Shown: positions 18,980 through 34,811 of the stretch, piece after piece
Layout of the letters: the number at the start of each line of letters is the position of its first letter
Position numbering within the stretch: position 1 is the stretch's first letter
From: a virus
Taxonomy: Duplodnaviria > Caudoviricetes
Length of the DNA stretch: 39,863 nucleotides
IMG/VR virus record: IMGVR_UViG_3300020045_002020
Coordinates: 1 to 39,863 of that record
Strand: one strand, 5' to 3'
Notes under the pieces: model-generated
Told to the model about the DNA's origin: nothing
The model's input: the letters and a program-made list of their open reading frames with translations, nothing else
Databases searched by the model: none
Translations under genes and position numbers: made by a program

Positions 18980-19471
18980 CTACCCAAGATCAGATTGGTT
19001 ATATTTTAACCAAGACCTACCTGAAGACTCCCACAAAGTCTTAGCATCACCATGTGGATACTCTTCCAAAAAAATGACGCGTTCACACCCAGTATTGAGA
19101 AGCAGCTTAGTACAGGTTACGCATGGACTGGCTGTCGCGTATGCCGTGTGGATCTCGTAGACATCCTTGCACTGGAGCAAAGCATTCTGCTCTGCGTGGA
19201 TCGCCTGGCAAGCATCCAGATTCGTACCACTAGGAGAGTTTGCACCTGGACAAGCATTGGGGTAGTAATGCTCCACATTGTTCATGGTATCTGCTTGAAG
19301 CTTACGCTCATTACAATGCGGAAGCCCAGCAGCGACTCCGTTGAACCCAGTGGCGATCACATGACCTCGCTTATTCAGTAGCGCACACCCAACTTTACGA
19401 CGGCAGCATGTAGACCGTTGAGCAGTCAGAAGTGCCAGGCCAATTGCCCATGCGTGTCTTGAAGGTCTCAT
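18980..19471 (-). CDS. dCMP deaminase
   Basis: RSTC.RRKVG, TGFNG, HAEQNAL and SPCVTC zinc motifs; ATGA overlap places the start at 19471. Confidence 0.92.
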   Translation of the reverse strand: MRPSRHAWAIGLALLTAQRSTCCRRKVGCALLNKRGHVIATGFNGVAAGLPHCNERKLQADTMNNVEHYYPNACPGANSPSGTNLDACQAIHAEQNALLQCKDVYEIHTAYATASPCVTCTKLLLNTGCERVIFLEEYPHGDAKTLWESSGRSWLKYNQSDLG

Positions 19472-20283
19472 ACTTTTTCCTCCCACCAACGAAGAATATT
19501 CCCTGGTTTAGTATACCGAAGTTCGCCTAACAGTGGTATTAGATATTGTGGATTCGTCCAGAGGTCGATTGCAGTTTGGACCTGGTTGAATACCTCACCT
19601 GCGTTATCCTGAACACAATAGATGGCACTCTTCCAATGCTCTTCATACAAGTGGCTAGATGCTGCTGTCAAGTACAAAGTCCCAGGTTTAATCTGTTTGG
19701 TAGCGTCATCTATTCCTATATTAAGAAGCCCACAGATTAAATGTGCGATCATACTGAAGTTGAAGACGTCATAAGGAATACCAAGCCATGCATCTGAAGA
19801 TCTCATAAACGTATGATTATTCAGGTGGCCATCTCTAATATTGAAGAACATGGCGATAGTGCATGGAACATCCTTCGTCTCAGGAGGGTTCTCTCTCCAG
19901 AAAGTCATGCCAGCTTGGCGGGTATCCTTATCTTGGTCGAGTTTGCTGACAACATACCGGATCTGGTCCATGAGCTTAGGTCCGTATGCGCCGAAGAAGG
20001 TTTCACCGTTATCAGAGAAGTCTGCAATTCTCTTGTTCCACGGAGCAATATCTTCTACACGATCACTACCGGACAGGATCCAATGAGCTTCAGCTGCCAT
20101 GAACTGATAACTAAGCTTGCGGTCTGGTACGTCAAGCACTGGAGTCCTCATGTTCACCTTGATCGTGTTCTGAGGAATCTCCCTCGTCAACTTACCGCGA
20201 GGAGAGACTAGAGCACCATCTGCTATGATCTCACAGATCATACTAAGCCACACTGTTGAGAACGACACAGGTACGTAGTTCAT
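19468..20283 (-). CDS. Thymidylate synthase-fold enzyme, probable dCMP (hydroxy)methyltransferase
   Basis: GAYG, DTRQA, catalytic PC, MRSSDAWLGIPYD, HLY; Asp at the E. coli ThyA Asn177-equivalent site. Confidence 0.85.
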   Translation of the reverse strand: MNYVPVSFSTVWLSMICEIIADGALVSPRGKLTREIPQNTIKVNMRTPVLDVPDRKLSYQFMAAEAHWILSGSDRVEDIAPWNKRIADFSDNGETFFGAYGPKLMDQIRYVVSKLDQDKDTRQAGMTFWRENPPETKDVPCTIAMFFNIRDGHLNNHTFMRSSDAWLGIPYDVFNFSMIAHLICGLLNIGIDDATKQIKPGTLYLTAASSHLYEEHWKSAIYCVQDNAGEVFNQVQTAIDLWTNPQYLIPLLGELRYTKPGNILRWWEEKV

Positions 20284-20651
20284 TATCTCCCCTCCGTAGA
20301 TGCGATGTAGAAGCCTGCATAGTTGATAATATCCAGAGCAGTGTCAGAGAGACCTTCGAAATTCTCTTTCTTGCCGTCGATCTGTTTTTGAACGAGTGAA
20401 TTGAACCGCTGAGATTTAGTATGGAGCATCTGAGCATAACTCACGGCGCCGAATGGAAAATAGTTAGAGCGGTCGACATCATGGGGATTCACGTCCTTAC
20501 CGTGGTTGTAGTCCTGGCTCTTCTTAATGCATAAAAGAGCCGCTTGCGCCAGAGCACCAGGATGCCCGCCACGATTGGCGAGCTCCTGAAGCAGTTCTTC
20601 ACTTGACGCTTCCAATATTACTTGGCTTCTGTTAGCTTCACTTAGGCTCAT
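20283..20651 (-). CDS. Nucleotide-modification-associated domain 1 (Nmad1/DUF1599)-like protein
   Basis: KKSQDY...K..R...E.LSDTALDIINY motif; start reassigned to 20651. Confidence 0.65.
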   Translation of the reverse strand: MSLSEANRSQVILEASSEELLQELANRGGHPGALAQAALLCIKKSQDYNHGKDVNPHDVDRSNYFPFGAVSYAQMLHTKSQRFNSLVQKQIDGKKENFEGLSDTALDIINYAGFYIASTEGR

Positions 20652-21030
20652 TGTCTTCACCTTCTGGTATACTTGGACTAGTTTCTGCAGACTTAACGGA
20701 TCCATCGGCAATCCTGCCATTATTTACCTCCCACTTCTTCCTCAGAGCATCTGTCAACTCCATGGGAGTCAATCCGTAAGCCAGTGCAGCGTTGGCCCAG
20801 AACTGAAGGATGTCAGTCATCTCAGTGGCAAGAGCGGCACGATTAACCTCTATCTTCTTGGTTTTCCAAGGCTTGAAGTTGATCTCCTGCATCGCTTCAG
20901 TTGTTTCCACGATGACATGAAGAAGGTTCTCTTTCACACCTTCCTCGCCGGCACCAGTAGGATTGCCCATACGCTTCTGCAACTCAAATTGAGTGGTGAG
21001 CAACTCGTTAAGATCTAAAAAGTCAAACAT
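20638..21030 (-). CDS. All-alpha NTP pyrophosphatase (dimeric dUTPase/dCTPase, MazG-like)
   Basis: ETTEAMQEINFKPWK, EMTDILQF, KWEVNNGR motifs. Confidence 0.8.
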   Translation of the reverse strand: MFDFLDLNELLTTQFELQKRMGNPTGAGEEGVKENLLHVIVETTEAMQEINFKPWKTKKIEVNRAALATEMTDILQFWANAALAYGLTPMELTDALRKKWEVNNGRIADGSVKSAETSPSIPEGEDNEPK

Positions 21031-21803
21031 TATTTCTTCCCCTTAAGAGGTTTGCGACACACCCAGAGATTATTGCGAGAGTGGTCTGGGTACAAAGGAC
21101 CAAAGATGTTGCTGATGGCATCGTTGTCAAAGTACTTATCAAGCTGAGACCTGACCAACTTGATGGCAGCACCGAGTTCTTTGTCGTCATCTGGCGCTAC
21201 CTTACCTATATATTTTATATCCATGAACGTGCCATAGCGCTTTTCAATTTCGAAACCTGCCTTCTCAGTGATCTTCTGAAGCTCAGGAACGGTATACTCA
21301 TGGATGTGGTTAGCCGCGTGGCGCTTCCCATCGTAGCATGGCGTAGACATCAACATCACACCACCAGGTTTCAAGGATTCGAATGCGGCCTTCAGTAACT
21401 TAGTGCCACTGTCTACCTTCATGTGCTCAATGACTTCATAATGAACGACAACATCAAACAGGCCATGCTCTTTGATCAACTTCTTGTAGTTATTGGTGAA
21501 GTCAAACTCTCCATAGAACTCCAACCGTTGACTGTTAGACGGTTTTAGTTTGTTCAGATCAACACCAACGTAGCGGTCGACGTGAGCCGAAGCACCACCT
21601 GTAAGGATCTTGCTCAGTGGTTTTTCTTCACCGCATCCAATTTCAAGTACTGAGTCTTTGGCGCTGATGAAACGACGGGCAAAGCTCCAGCGCCAGAAAT
21701 GGGCAGAATAATCTCTGTGAAGAGTCTTGCCATGACCTGACAGCTTCAACTGGGTTGTATCGAACTCTCGCTCGTCTCGTTTTACTTCTCTTGAAATTGG
21801 CAT
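21030..21803 (-). CDS. Class I SAM-dependent methyltransferase
   Basis: VLEIGCG, YVGVDL, FDVVVHYEVIEH, LKPGG...STP. Confidence 0.88.
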   Translation of the reverse strand: MPISREVKRDEREFDTTQLKLSGHGKTLHRDYSAHFWRWSFARRFISAKDSVLEIGCGEEKPLSKILTGGASAHVDRYVGVDLNKLKPSNSQRLEFYGEFDFTNNYKKLIKEHGLFDVVVHYEVIEHMKVDSGTKLLKAAFESLKPGGVMLMSTPCYDGKRHAANHIHEYTVPELQKITEKAGFEIEKRYGTFMDIKYIGKVAPDDDKELGAAIKLVRSQLDKYFDNDAISNIFGPLYPDHSRNNLWVCRKPLKGKK

Positions 21804-22607: not shown

Positions 22608-22845
22608 GTTTAACCTCATTATCTAGTTCAAGAGCGATCATTGATAATTCTAGAAGTCCTTGGATCCAGACTCTAGATTCTTCGTACTGGAAAGGTCCTG
22701 CAGTTTGCCAGTGAAACCTTGCACCTTTATTGTCGCTAGTTACTAATCCACGACGACAGCCATCAATATAGAGTTGGAATCTCTTCTCATTGTCAACGCT
22801 CTCATCACGAATGTCTATTGTGTCTACATCACTTTGTGCCATCAC
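22579..22845 (-). CDS. Hypothetical protein
   Basis: ORF in a tightly packed operon with AAGG RBS. Confidence 0.6.
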   Translation of the reverse strand: MMAQSDVDTIDIRDESVDNEKRFQLYIDGCRRGLVTSDNKGARFHWQTAGPFQYEESRVWIQGLLELSMIALELDNEVKHVKKKGKRK

Positions 22846-23023
22846 ACCTTCCTTTATATGGAGGCCAGCCTGGGCGATCTTCAGGTGGCAGATGTTTAAA
22901 CTCTTCCCATTTAGCAGTCATCTTACAGTAGAGTTCATAGTCTACCTTGTCTGTAATCTCAGTATCTGAGAATACCCACAGTAGCCCGATGACGCACAGC
23001 GAAACTATTATAGATTTTGTCAT
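22829..23023 (-). CDS. Small membrane-anchored hypothetical protein
   Basis: N-terminal hydrophobic segment; C-terminal YCKM...GWPPYKGRC. Confidence 0.65.
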   Translation of the reverse strand: MTKSIIVSLCVIGLLWVFSDTEITDKVDYELYCKMTAKWEEFKHLPPEDRPGWPPYKGRCDGTK

Positions 23024-23265
23024 GTGTCACGTCTTCCATAAGGAAAGGTCAAATAGTCTGGGTCAAGCTGTGCTAGTCTACGTTCAAAACTCTCATCCAT
23101 TTCTTTGATTCTCTTAATCTACCAGTCTTTGCTGATGCCCATATCTTTCCAAGCCTTTACGCTTTGATCAGTTATTGGTGTTCCTGTGCTTATCACGCTG
23201 CACAAGTGCGTAATATCTTTCTCTTCACGCATAACAAGGCAATCAGCATCATTCGCTTCACTCAT
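23020..23265 (-). pseudogene. 81-codon ORF interrupted by an in-frame TAG at 23119-23121
   Basis: AAAGGAG RBS and ATG inside the attC-like site; the frame continues past the TAG to a TGA that overlaps the next ATG (ATGA). Confidence 0.55.
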
Positions 23266-23306
23266 TCGGAACTCCTTTAAGTCGTCCTGTTATTGCGACG
23301 TTACGA
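23229..23306 (+). mobile_element. attC-like recombination site A1
   Basis: GCATAAC...GCAATcAGCA / TGTTATTGC...GTTACGA; arms pair with one extra C. Confidence 0.75.
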
Positions 23307-23510
23307 GTCGCCATCAAACCACACGGTTGTCATAGAGGCAGGCGGGATAAATACACCAACACCATGAATCACCTCGCACCTGTAATCCGATTTAAAGTCA
23401 CAACTCAAGAATTTCACGCCATTCCATACCCAAGGCACTACGCCTAGAAAAATTACAACCACAACCACAATCATCAACTCAACCAATGTAAAACCTTTTT
23501 GCTTCGTCAT
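23301..23510 (-). CDS. Small prepilin-type (class III signal peptide) protein in a cassette
   Basis: MTKQKG/FTLVELMIVVVVV; GAGG RBS; stop codon inside the attC core. Confidence 0.8.
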   Translation of the reverse strand: MTKQKGFTLVELMIVVVVVIFLGVVPWVWNGVKFLSCDFKSDYRCEVIHGVGVFIPPASMTTVWFDGDS

Positions 23511-23539
23511 AATAATAATATCCTCTTAATTAAAATTAC

Positions 23540-23606
23540 ACGTAACAATGCGCTCATGCAGTTTCACTCGGACGCGCTTCATGAGCCGCATAGCTTTTGG
23601 TTACAA
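23540..23606 (+). mobile_element. attC-like recombination site A2
   Basis: ACGTAAC...GCTcATGC / GCATAGC...GTTACAA. Confidence 0.72.
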
Positions 23607-23798
23607 CTCTTTCTCAAGTTCTTTGATTATTGCTTTTATACAGTTCTTACAGGGAGCAATTGAGCCACCAACAGATAAAGCAACGTGTTGTGCATCTTGG
23701 AATGCCCAAGATGCATTGAATTTTCTACCGCACCAGACTTCAGGAATTCCCAGCTGCTTCCCATCTTTATGCGTATATTTGATAACGTGTCTGCTCAT
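23601..23798 (-). CDS. Cassette-borne hypothetical protein (WCG...CxxC, possible metal binding)
   Basis: 65 aa; stop codon inside the attC core; preceded by a G11 run. Confidence 0.7.
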   Translation of the reverse strand: MSRHVIKYTHKDGKQLGIPEVWCGRKFNASWAFQDAQHVALSVGGSIAPCKNCIKAIIKELEKEL

Positions 23799-23802
23799 TT
23801 AG

Positions 23803-23813
23803 CCCCCCCCCCC
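23803..23813. repeat. C11/G11 homopolymer at the RBS position of 23601-23798
   Basis: 11 consecutive C on the + strand, 4 nt from the ATG. Confidence 0.85.
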
Positions 23814-23820
23814 ATTGAGT

Positions 23821-23850
23821 TACAACAAGTAAATTAAGTCGGACAACCCA
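23821..23850 (+). mobile_element. Truncated attC-like left half A3
   Basis: TACAACAAGTAAATTAAGTCGGAC resembles an attC left arm; flank GAGTTACAAC is 8/10 complementary to GTTACAACTC at 23600. Confidence 0.45.
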
Positions 23851-23941
23851 CCACTACGTCTGAAAACCATTCCTTATTTCCATTTTGCGCTCTGCTGCCT
23901 TTATAACTCTAATCTGCAAATCTGTCATAACTACTACGTCA

Positions 23942-24009
23942 CACTAACAAGGCAAATCACGCGGAACTCATTCGGGCGGCGAAGCCGCCCGCATAGCTTG
24001 GCGTTAATG
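23942..24009 (+). mobile_element. attC-like recombination site A4
   Basis: CACTAACAAGGCAAATCACGCGG...GGGCGGCGAAGCCGCCC...GCATAGCTTGGCGTTAATG. Confidence 0.65.
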
Positions 24010-24019
24010 TGCGTGTCAT

Positions 24020-24547
24020 CTAGTCCTCAAGCACATGAAGAACATTGGGGTCTTGCCGCGCTAGATCAAAGGCCGGAGGGAGTTGACCCTTACGACGTAG
24101 CTCGCAGCGATACCAAGCTGGGTAGCTCTTCTTCTCAGGTCCGAAACGTTCCTCTCCATACTCAGCTTGAAGAGCTGCGAAGATGGTAGGATTGTCTGCG
24201 CCCTCTAAGATCATATCACGACATAGACTGGAGATGGTGACACGCGGAGCTTTCTTAGCAGGCTTCTTCTCAGCTTTAGGTTTCTTCTCAGCTTTAGGCT
24301 TCTTCTCAGTTTTAGGCTTCTTCTCAGCTTTAGGCTTCTTCTCAGTTTTAGGCTTCTTCTCAACTTTAGGCTTCTTAAGATCAAGAAGATAATTCTCTGC
24401 CATTGCAATGTTACATGCGAATCTCCCATCTCCCATCTTATCGATGAAGAGACCGTAATCGCGTGAATTAATGCCCATATTACGAAGCAGCGCAGTGGCG
24501 GAGTCACGACGGGCGTAGAATTTAGTAGCATCATCTTGTTTAGTCAT
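24020..24547 (-). CDS. Basic protein with KKPK(A/T/V)E repeats, putative DNA-binding
   Basis: First gene after a strong promoter; histone H1-like linker. Confidence 0.8.
   Translation of the reverse strand: MTKQDDATKFYARRDSATALLRNMGINSRDYGLFIDKMGDGRFACNIAMAENYLLDLKKPKVEKKPKTEKKPKAEKKPKTEKKPKAEKKPKAEKKPAKKAPRVTISSLCRDMILEGADNPTIFAALQAEYGEERFGPEKKSYPAWYRCELRRKGQLPPAFDLARQDPNVLHVLED
24261..24376. repeat. 18-bp tandem repeat, six units plus a partial unit
   Basis: GGCTTCTTCTCAGCTTTA variants encoding KKPKxE. Confidence 0.9.
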
Positions 24548-24592: not shown

Positions 24593-24621
24593 ATTATAGC
24601 GCGAGATCACTGAGTTGTAAA
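24593..24621 (-). promoter_or_regulatory. Sigma70-like promoter
   Basis: TTTACA-N17-TATAAT on the - strand. Confidence 0.8.
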
Positions 24622-30040: not shown

Positions 30041-30117
30041 ATTTACCTCGTATATTAGGCTGGTAATACTCGCGCCATTTAACACCTACCGTTGCGACTG
30101 GTGCACATAAATCTTAG

Positions 30118-30270
30118 TTAGGCATCATGTGATTGCCTTTCGTGATCCTCGATTGATTTGGCTATGTACTCGCCAAGCCCAGTTGCTGCAAACAATGCTT
30201 CTAGCAATTCTTGCTTCGCCATTCGCTGCGCTTCTTTCTGCAAGATTTGCCATTTTTCATCGTCGTTCAT
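30118..30270 (-). CDS. Cassette-borne hypothetical protein (50 aa)
   Basis: GGAGG RBS; stop codon inside the GTTAGGC core at 30117-30123. Confidence 0.65.
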   Translation of the reverse strand: MNDDEKWQILQKEAQRMAKQELLEALFAATGLGEYIAKSIEDHERQSHDA

Positions 30271-30282
30271 TTCATCCTCCGT

Positions 30283-30337
30283 GCCTAACATTTGCGTCAA
30301 CGCGGACGCTCCGCTTTGCTACGCGCCGGTGTTATGC
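30283..30337 (+). mobile_element. attC-like site B1 (right arm partly deleted)
   Basis: GCCTAACATTTGCGTCAACGCGGACGC...GCGCCGGT-GTTATGC; GCCTAAC is the exact complement of GTTAGGC at 30117. Confidence 0.72.
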
Positions 30338-30519
30338 CCCGTAGAGTCAGCTGCCACGGTACGGTACATCGGCATATAGTTGTCGCACTCGACGCCGCGT
30401 ACTGAAATCGTGTAATCGAACATTGCCACGCTTTGCCAGTCGCTTGCTTTTGCCTGCACTCGATAGCAGTGCCCTGCGTTCGGGCAAAGTGTCTGGGAAC
30501 ACATTGTAATGTCAGCCAT
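30319..30519 (-). CDS. Cassette-borne Cys-rich hypothetical protein
   Basis: MADITMC....CP....CYR; AAGGA RBS. Confidence 0.7.
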   Translation of the reverse strand: MADITMCSQTLCPNAGHCYRVQAKASDWQSVAMFDYTISVRGVECDNYMPMYRTVAADSTGHNTGA

Positions 30520-30534
30520 ATCAATCCTTCCGTT

Positions 30535-30590
30535 GCATAACTGTGCCTTCAACTCGGACGCCTTAGGCGTCGGTTAAGGCGGCGTTAGCC
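30535..30590 (+). mobile_element. attC-like site B2 (56 bp, canonical looking)
   Basis: GCATAAC TGT GCCTTcAACtCGgACGCC TTA GGCGTCGGTTAAGGC GGC GTTAGCC. Confidence 0.85.
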
Positions 30591-30904
30591 GTCACAAGTC
30601 GGTAGTCGTAGTCATCAACGTACCCTGTTTCGTAGTCATGGCTTTCGTTGCACACCACCACTTCGTAAATTCCGTCTTCGACCTCGCTTAAATTCAAGAT
30701 GCGCAGCAAAACCTCTTCCGCACCTATCGCGTTGGCGTCTTCGGAAAGGATGTTGAATCCTTCGCACTGGCGGCGCAAGAACGTCAGGCTTTTCTTCGTG
30801 TACAGCCCACGCTTGTCTGCCCATACCGTCGTCTTCACCCGCACCGTGCAACGGCTAACATTTACGCCAACCGGACCTTGCGCCATGAGCGTTTCGAGGT
30901 TCAT
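30563..30904 (-). CDS. Cassette-borne hypothetical protein
   Basis: GGAGG RBS and ATG in the loop of attC B3; stop codon in the loop of attC B2. Confidence 0.75.
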   Translation of the reverse strand: MNLETLMAQGPVGVNVSRCTVRVKTTVWADKRGLYTKKSLTFLRRQCEGFNILSEDANAIGAEEVLLRILNLSEVEDGIYEVVVCNESHDYETGYVDDYDYRLVTANAALTDA

Positions 30905-30949
30905 TGTTCCTCCTGTGCTGGCGCAAGGCCGGTTACGTTATCATTAGTA
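30853..30949 (+). mobile_element. attC-like site B3
   Basis: GGCTAAC...ACGCcAACCGGaCCTTGCGCCA / TGGCGCAAGGCCGGTTACGT...ATTAGTA; two extra bases (C, A); right core degenerate (ATT for GTT). Confidence 0.8.
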
Positions 30950-33856: not shown

Positions 33857-34131
33857 TTGTTTTGTCCTCTACCATTACACGCTTCGCATCGCATTTTTAC
33901 AGTATTGAACCCATGCCCTCGGGCCACAGATCCAGATCCGTTACAATTCCCGCACTTTTTAGGCTTCTTGGAATACTCCAAAGCTTCCATGTACGCAGTG
34001 CGGAGCTCGTTAAACTTATCAGCATCTCCTCCCTTATCAGGATGGTTAAGATTAGCTAGTTCTCTCCAACGAATCTTCACCTCCTCAGGAGATGCCGTGG
34101 GCAGCAAGCCCAACAAGGTGAACGCCTTCAT
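33853..34131 (-). CDS. Mini J-domain protein with DnaJ-type zinc finger
   Basis: HPDKGG motif; CGNCNGSG and CEACNGRG. Confidence 0.85.
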   Translation of the reverse strand: MKAFTLLGLLPTASPEEVKIRWRELANLNHPDKGGDADKFNELRTAYMEALEYSKKPKKCGNCNGSGSVARGHGFNTVKMRCEACNGRGQNK

Positions 34132-34811
34132 CCAAGCACCTCCTTCAGTGAAGGGTAGTGTTCAAGCAGAAGATCTCGGCAATCTTCAGCAATTTCGCGA
34201 TGCTCTTTCTGAGTACCGCTACCCGTACGCAACTGAATGTAGTGAATCCAACTACGAACCGTGCCGCTCATATACAGACGAGACTCGGTCAAGCCTTCAG
34301 GAAGGACAGATCGAGCAACCTCCTTGGCGATACCCGCGTTCAAGGCTTGGTTGTACTGGTCGTGAGCATAGGTAGCCACTGACTGTTGAGCAGACGACCA
34401 CCAAAGAGTTAGTTCGTCATCATCTATCTCAATACTACTTTGCCTGTTCTTTACATCTTGGAGTCGTGCTTCACGAATCACCGGAGCCGCTTGCACCTCA
34501 GCATACCGCTGGCTGAACTCTTGGAAGCTGAACGAGCGGTGGCGTAGGATTTGGCGGGCAATATCACGAGTCGTTACGATCTCGATCACAGCATGAGCCA
34601 TCTCGAACGGAGACCAGTGTTGATTCTCCACCATGTACTCAAGCAGCTTATCAGACGTGCCGTGGTTCAGCTGATTTCTCGGATTAGAGACTCGTGCACA
34701 GTAAGCAATGAGTGCTTGAGCTGGGTTCCAGACATCTCCGCCTTCAGGACCATCAACAACGCCGACACCTAGCAACGGTTGTGTCAATGCAATTAAACGG
34801 ACAGCCATCAT
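34128..34811 (-). CDS. thyX: FAD-dependent thymidylate synthase
   Basis: HWSPFE, RQILRHRSFSFQEFSQRY, EVARSVLP, TQKEHR. Confidence 0.95.
   Translation of the reverse strand: MMAVRLIALTQPLLGVGVVDGPEGGDVWNPAQALIAYCARVSNPRNQLNHGTSDKLLEYMVENQHWSPFEMAHAVIEIVTTRDIARQILRHRSFSFQEFSQRYAEVQAAPVIREARLQDVKNRQSSIEIDDDELTLWWSSAQQSVATYAHDQYNQALNAGIAKEVARSVLPEGLTESRLYMSGTVRSWIHYIQLRTGSGTQKEHREIAEDCRDLLLEHYPSLKEVLG

Follow-up and report, generated by a model that had tools for sequence, protein, structure and literature searches.

A decaying array of inverted integron-type attC cassettes in a complete podophage genome

The window, which is the whole stretch of 39,863 nucleotides that was analysed (virus record IMGVR_UViG_3300020045_002020), is an entire phage genome (39.7 kb, with a terminal repeat of 121 bases), and the record is rated 100% complete. 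A PHROG scan indicates a podophage with P22-like head and tail genes on the plus strand and replication and nucleotide genes on the minus strand. No tyrosine recombinase was found in the complete genome, either in the PHROG scan of 55 ORFs or in a search for PF00589 over six frames (0 candidates). The nearest cultured polymerases are 64-66% identical to that of the window. DNA searches of cultured phages and an Rfam search of the window returned no match. A dCMP deaminase, two thymidylate-synthase-like genes, a pyrophosphohydrolase and a methyltransferase are encoded at 18980-21803 and 34128-34811 and form a possible modified-base pathway.

Between two conserved minus-strand genes lies array A, a block of 984 bases (23020-24003) that consists of four decaying integron-type attC cassettes. 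Upstream of it is gene 24020 (24020..24547, minus), which encodes 175 aa with a lysine-rich repeat linker, and downstream is gene 22829 (22829..23023, minus), a small phage gene of 64 aa as it stands. A sigma70-type promoter-like site (24593..24621, minus, 11/12 match) precedes gene 24020; at a looser threshold one such site was found where 3.2 were expected, so that the site is not significant by count alone. A sequence-only reading of this DNA had described a second, eroding attC array with a single gene between it and a strong promoter, and this description holds, the promoter being the sigma70-type one. A 30-base repeat at 24613, 32360 and 35953 marks three minus-strand promoter-like sites; downstream of two of these sites lie array A, after one gene, and a second array, array B, after two genes.

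The yardstick for the sites was what we take to be the attC anatomy, checked on a Cycloclasticus integron (L081) and on TJE1: R'' and R' boxes, 5-base spacers, and an L'' box of 8 with an extra base that pairs with an L' box of 7. Two sites have this anatomy, both with their top strand on plus: attC A1 (23229..23306; 6 of 7 L-box pairs, crossover G23300) and attC A2 (23540..23606; 7 of 7 pairs, crossover G23600), the latter being the best kept in the array. The other two depart from it. AttC A3 (23820..23853, plus) is a left half only, with an altered R'' box, a spacer and an L''-like box, its right arm being absent. AttC A4 (23942..24009, plus; right crossover G24003) keeps both R boxes, but none of its seven L-box positions forms a Watson-Crick pair and its arms do not pair; it is likely a chimera of two sites, the left and right L boxes differing in type. 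The coordinates first proposed for A1, A2 and A4 were right, as was the left half reported near 23821, which begins at 23820.

A strict scan for the order R''-L''-L'-R', with thresholds chosen after the sequence had been seen, finds two sites in array A, a number reached by 2 of 2000 dinucleotide shuffles (mean 0.006). Over the whole window the same scan finds four sites and none of 60 whole-window shuffles reaches three; one of the four, on the minus strand at 19004, is probably due to chance. A home-built covariance model was trained on 16 outside sites (13 from bacterial-type loci and 3 from TJE1). Its five matches in the window, plus strand only, are headed by A1 (20.2 bits), A2 (19.4 bits) and B2 of array B (19.2 bits), and it has no match to A3 or A4. 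The rough E values of 0.02-0.03 for A1 and A2 come from a model whose training set was picked in part with the A2 pattern; because 3 of the 16 training sites were found in this way, the A2 score leans high. Both scores are at the bottom of the range for other viral sites (21-47 bits). Folding energy does not separate A1 (z +0.71), A2 (z -1.20) or the A3 stretch (z +1.07) from shuffles, and the fold that gives A4 its z of -2.76 is an inner hairpin and does not involve pairing of the R and L boxes; the array B sites gave -1.7, -3.3 and -5.2, and four control sites gave -2.3 to -7.7. The outcome that would have told against the sequence-only reading, sites scoring no better than shuffled hairpins, was thus seen for folding energy and not for strict anatomy or the model. 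No terminator-like site was found at any of the array A sites. The array A sites are real but worn attC sites.

Parts of these sites recur in bacteria. The 15-base right arm common to A2 and A4 also closes attC sites in two bacterial loci (L068 and L071), so the sharing already remarked on is correct and the arm is not special to array A. The possibility that the A4 arm was copied from A2 was rejected, the identical arm being present in bacteria. The A2 L boxes are identical to those in the Cycloclasticus integron. The exact A2-type and A4-left patterns have no viral match; the A2 pattern has four genome matches, which means that the motif is widespread and nothing more. Two pattern scans over 401 genomes from a single class, with 1 match in one scan and 0 in the other, name no donor or host. 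With A1 and A2 311 bases apart in a genome without a tyrosine recombinase, array A falls within the definition of a CALIN. It falls outside that of a complete integron, which has intI and attI, since there is no integrase and the left end of the array is inside a coding gene.

Each cassette carries a small frame. The A0 gene (23020..23232, minus; 70 codons with an in-frame TAG at 23119-23121) has its start codon within the A1 R'' box and its stop at the left core of the array. It is a broken member of a small unnamed family, with 16 similar-sized proteins among 23 matches, that occurs in nine viral loci, five of them distinct, with an attC site in one (L113) and none in four. In L113, an unrelated phage, the A0 homologue is in an inverted cassette whose ends are matched at 7/7 (sites of 31.4 and 20.7 bits). 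The N-terminal extensions of the homologues P0006, P0008, P0010 and P0016 resemble, by eye and at the protein level only, translated attC bottom strands.

The A1 gene (23301..23510, minus; 69 aa) has its stop codon within the A1 R' box (TTA). Its product, a small phage protein of membrane type, has the Pfam prepilin N-methylation motif PF07963 (29.4 bits, above the cut-off). Phage-like operons that lack whole attC sites encode homologues of it, some having the motif and some not. Comparison with L066, L091 and L092 shows the prepilin leader in only some members of the family, namely the window and P0002, and in degenerate form in L093. Of 22 metagenome loci with matches to the A1 gene, 19 aligned only to the N-terminal leader part and were set aside; a protein atlas had no usable match for this pilin-like gene, a plasmid search gave only a 55-base match to the pilin leader, and no literature on the function of pilin-like phage genes was found. 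The A2 gene (23601..23798, minus; 65 aa) likewise has its stop codon within its R' box (TTA) and belongs to phrog_4090, a family with no assigned function that is common in phages (39 cultured phage records). A run of 11 C at 23803-23813, the sole homopolymer of at least 8 in the genome, occupies the expected ribosome site of this gene and could vary by slippage.

The A3 remnant (23854..23928, minus) is a 24-codon frame that runs into the A3 half site; it is likely a truncated gene, and no homologues of it were found. None of the array A cassettes was found elsewhere with the same attC, and the model had no match at homologues of the A1 and A2 genes in seven loci (L063, L064, L066, L067 and L091-L093). 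In L091 the last bases of two genes are TAAC, and the short hairpin-like stretches that come next (1026-1075 and 1345-1390) have no model match and may be attC remnants. The cargo of array A is phage-type, and the same gene families are found with and without cassette packaging.

All four frames of array A are on the attC bottom strand: the top strand of the sites is plus and the genes are on minus. The usual cassette arrangement, in which the gene is on the top strand and ends at its attC (a rule that is not strict), is therefore absent. Polarity was assigned by the rule that the top strand is the one whose left arm has the extra base, and under this rule both the intI-linked Cycloclasticus array and TJE1 come out canonical. 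The bottom strand of TJE1 that was cloned is given in the supplement of PMC9892861. In viral contigs a generalised pattern recovered six loci, five of them distinct, of which four are inverted at a matched site and one is canonical; one cassette of L090 has ORFs on both strands. Among 11 bacterial cassettes (L068, L081 and L083) nine are forward, one is inverted and one is without an ORF of 55 codons. Both polarity samples are small, and the count omits L069 and a solo site in L071, which have no assignable cassette gene, and L065, which was dropped as a weak partial match. The Cycloclasticus integron has an inverted cassette (L081, 4887-5208) that ends in an attC with A2-type L boxes, and its gene has no PHROG match.

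The cassette ends are also those of an integron array. The near-complementary ends noticed at the outset were confirmed: cassette A1 matches at 8/9 and cassette A2 at 8/10, where the second string begins at 23817 and not at 23818, and the end of the A3 half site matches the A2 core at 8/12. When the six cassettes of arrays A and B are pooled, the best match for each cassette core is its own R'' end, with 34 of 54 positions beyond GTT matched, a value reached by 1 of 720 pairings. As the left end of A0 was picked by eye, the figure without A0 is also given: 28 of 45 positions and 1 of 120 pairings. The left crossover point would be at 23019..23025 (plus), where G23019 is followed by TCATGT, while TTATGC would match the A1 R'' box; this end matches the complement of the A1 R'' end at 8/12. 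A second candidate left end, at 23171, has an equal match of 8/12, and rejoining from there is in frame too, with the A0 gene. The two best homologues of the A0 gene align from residue 4-5, upstream of 23171, and share a stretch that starts in the R'' box, which favours 23019. Many other A0 homologues start near residue 20, that is, near 23171, which counts for the second candidate, so that this candidate, though disfavoured, keeps some plausibility. The left core reads GTC and not GWT, so that a later change must be assumed.

The relatives of the phage show what the junction looks like when it is empty. A helicase search gave 62 relatives, of which 25 have gene 24020 and a downstream flanking match. 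In all 13 relatives with both flanking genes the junction is empty and the gene 22829 homologue directly follows gene 24020, its ATG being 2 bases after the gene 24020 stop; the script reported a gap of 2 in eight of them, and in the other five, where it had taken an earlier in-frame start, the same junction is present in the printed sequence. In the remaining 12 the next conserved gene follows after 85-142 bases (10 relatives) or after 1164 bases (2 relatives). The latter two (L020 and L021; 12600-13763 in L020) have at the same junction an unrelated 1164-base insert with three ORFs and no attC. At mostly 70-79% for the helicase, the relatives are distant, and many of them nearly duplicate one another; no closer ones were confirmed when gene 24020 was used as the query. 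The region between genes 24020 and 22829, whose synteny had been suggested as a check, is accordingly not invariant across relatives.

In the window an ATG directly after the gene 24020 stop begins what would be the stranded 5' end of gene 22829 (24004..24019, minus): it has five codons to the A4 crossover and the same ribosome site as the start of the L001 homologue. When 23020-24003 is removed in silico, one open frame of 68 codons results, its start aligned with the starts of the relatives, and an L-x-K motif of 10 of the 13 relatives spans the rejoined joint. The rejoined frame gains 0.9 bit on the profile of the relatives (55.2 against 54.3), and a deletion of in-frame length is expected by chance one time in three. 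From this comparison it is likely that array A split the start of gene 22829. G23019 and the TT at 24004-24005 together give GTT, a candidate attG-type target, at a junction that is empty in relatives too distant to provide an empty allele at base level. The third base of the left core differs from the expected one, and this difference creates the present ATG of gene 22829 (23021-23023), which is in the A0 core and overlaps the A0 stop, and keeps that stop. We infer that the change may have rescued gene 22829 after the insertion. The sequence-only reading had missed the inversion of the cassettes, the presence of A0, the precise ends of the array and the likely split in gene 22829.

Array B (30118..30943) has its top strand on plus, the same polarity as array A, as had been stated. 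It holds three cassettes, again inverted, and lies at the gene 30944 stop codon. Its junction is short in 36 of 40 relative rows, and two of the four long ones are script artefacts. The best reading is that it is a second insertion of the same type. Array B is eroded too: B3 has an A for the crossover G, which would lock that end, and B1 is without a paired L box. Nothing dates either array, and the suggestion that array A is the older one is therefore not sustained; GC content was rejected as a clock (A 0.43, B 0.53, core 0.46-0.47). In attC B3 (30853-30949) the loop holds the ribosome site and ATG of gene 30904, and the R' box is the stop codon of the core gene 30944. A 75-codon frame (30297-30524) reads through B1 (site 30283-30337). 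The left end of array B (30105-30123) reads TAAA, five bases and GTTAGGC, and presumably resembles an attI simple site. Recurrent capture, which had been put forward for this lineage, stands in the sense that cassettes were captured at least twice in this genome, at separate junctions that are both empty in relatives. It does not stand as a lineage-wide hotspot, since the attC model had no match, under default filters, in the 62 related loci. Such a pattern, two landings here against none among the relatives sampled, points to the recent past of this branch and not to a clade-wide hotspot.

We consider it probable that an IntI acting in trans put phage-type inverted cassettes at a secondary GTT (attG-like) site in gene 22829 and that decay followed. 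The phage genome encodes no IntI, and the enzyme would have come from the host or from a co-infecting or other element. The last attC of a cassette circle would have been joined to the GTT within the first codons of gene 22829 (attC x attG). The cassettes being inverted, their genes have the direction of the phage operon, and they are predicted to be transcribed from the promoter at 24621. The one-base change at the left core would then have given gene 22829 its new ATG, kept the A0 stop and locked that end, and later deletions would have removed the right arm of A3 and fused two sites into A4, with the stop in A0 also acquired. After such changes only cassette A1 (23301-23600), the one cassette with two whole sites, would be left excisable, as a predicted circle of 300 bases. 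Array A itself is probably mostly immobile by now, so that it documents the process but is not a working system. The attC anatomy, the polarity, the matched ends, the lack of an integrase, the empty junction, the in-frame rejoining and the phage-type cargo are observations; the identity of the enzyme and its attC x attG reaction, the left-core change and the later deletions are our reconstruction.

An unlikely alternative route is that array A was copied as a block from the cassette array of another phage or of a bacterium, by homologous or illegitimate recombination and with no integrase at the site. Such block transfer is suggested for phage CALINs in PMC9892861, the array A site has neither attI nor intI, its left core is not a clean GTT, and the 1164-base insert of L020 and L021 means that this junction takes foreign DNA by other routes. 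However, both ends of array A and both ends of array B are on cassette crossover points, without donor flank, and block transfer gives no reason for such ends twice. We find it improbable, more so than block transfer, that the sites are a phage-native repeat family that is merely attC-like and was moved by another recombinase. The polarity and cargo are unlike those of bacterial cassettes, the cargo consists of ordinary phage genes elsewhere and the model scores are low; against this, sites in bacterial genomes share the A2 L boxes and the A4 right arm exactly, one of them in an intI-linked array and with its cassette inverted too, and the genome of the phage is without a recombinase. That chance, or terminators in a variable intergenic region, would account for the hairpins, as the folding of A1, A2 and A3 would allow, is hardly credible given the shuffle, model and end-matching tests and the lack of a terminator-like site at any of them.

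Qi et al. (2023, PMC9892861) describe phage CALINs, that is, attC clusters without intI, in phages that include virulent ones, and report that IntI1 recombined five of six tested phage attC sites. Array A is like these in being clustered attC sites without intI in a phage; it differs in that its genes are all inverted and a candidate insertion point is placed for it; TJE1 from that work was canonical on recheck. A term search of the main text of PMC9892861 found no bottom-strand genes described and no empty site. IntI insertion at GWT outside integrons, gene disruption and attC loss by slippage are covered by Loot et al. (bioRxiv 10.1101/2022.09.11.507474), and array A resembles the attC x attG SALINs and small CALINs of that work in its short GWT landing outside an integron, in a gene that can be disrupted. 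Their cases are bacterial chromosomes with canonical cassettes, whereas array A is a natural phage case with four cassettes, inverted, and a likely gene rescue. Bacterial integron arrays such as L081 have the same attC boxes and spacing, matched ends and one promoterless gene per cassette, but they have intI and attI and 9 of the 11 cassettes counted forward, where array A has neither and all are inverted. No published account of systematically inverted phage cassettes was found in a search that covered few subscription journals and, for preprints, the main text. The genesis of cassettes is touched on only briefly in a passage of bioRxiv 10.1101/2024.07.02.601686. Phage CALINs and attG insertion are thus already published, and the inverted layout of array A is a variant for which no account was located.

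A broader proposal, which we advance tentatively and rate a little short of an even chance, is that phages keep their own pool of mirror-polarity cassettes made from ordinary phage genes, which host integrases drop into any GTT of unrelated phages. If this is true, the inverted polarity would put the recombining strand on the coding strand, and the genome would record two landings, one of which was rescued when a new start codon arose within the crossover site. By what route integron cassettes first arise is, to our knowledge, an open question. Here the same small phage gene families are found both as plain genes and in attC cassettes with the opposite polarity, and a landing site can be proposed to the base. 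With array A it can therefore be tested directly if integrases of the host modify phage genomes and if genes of phages supply the cassette pool.
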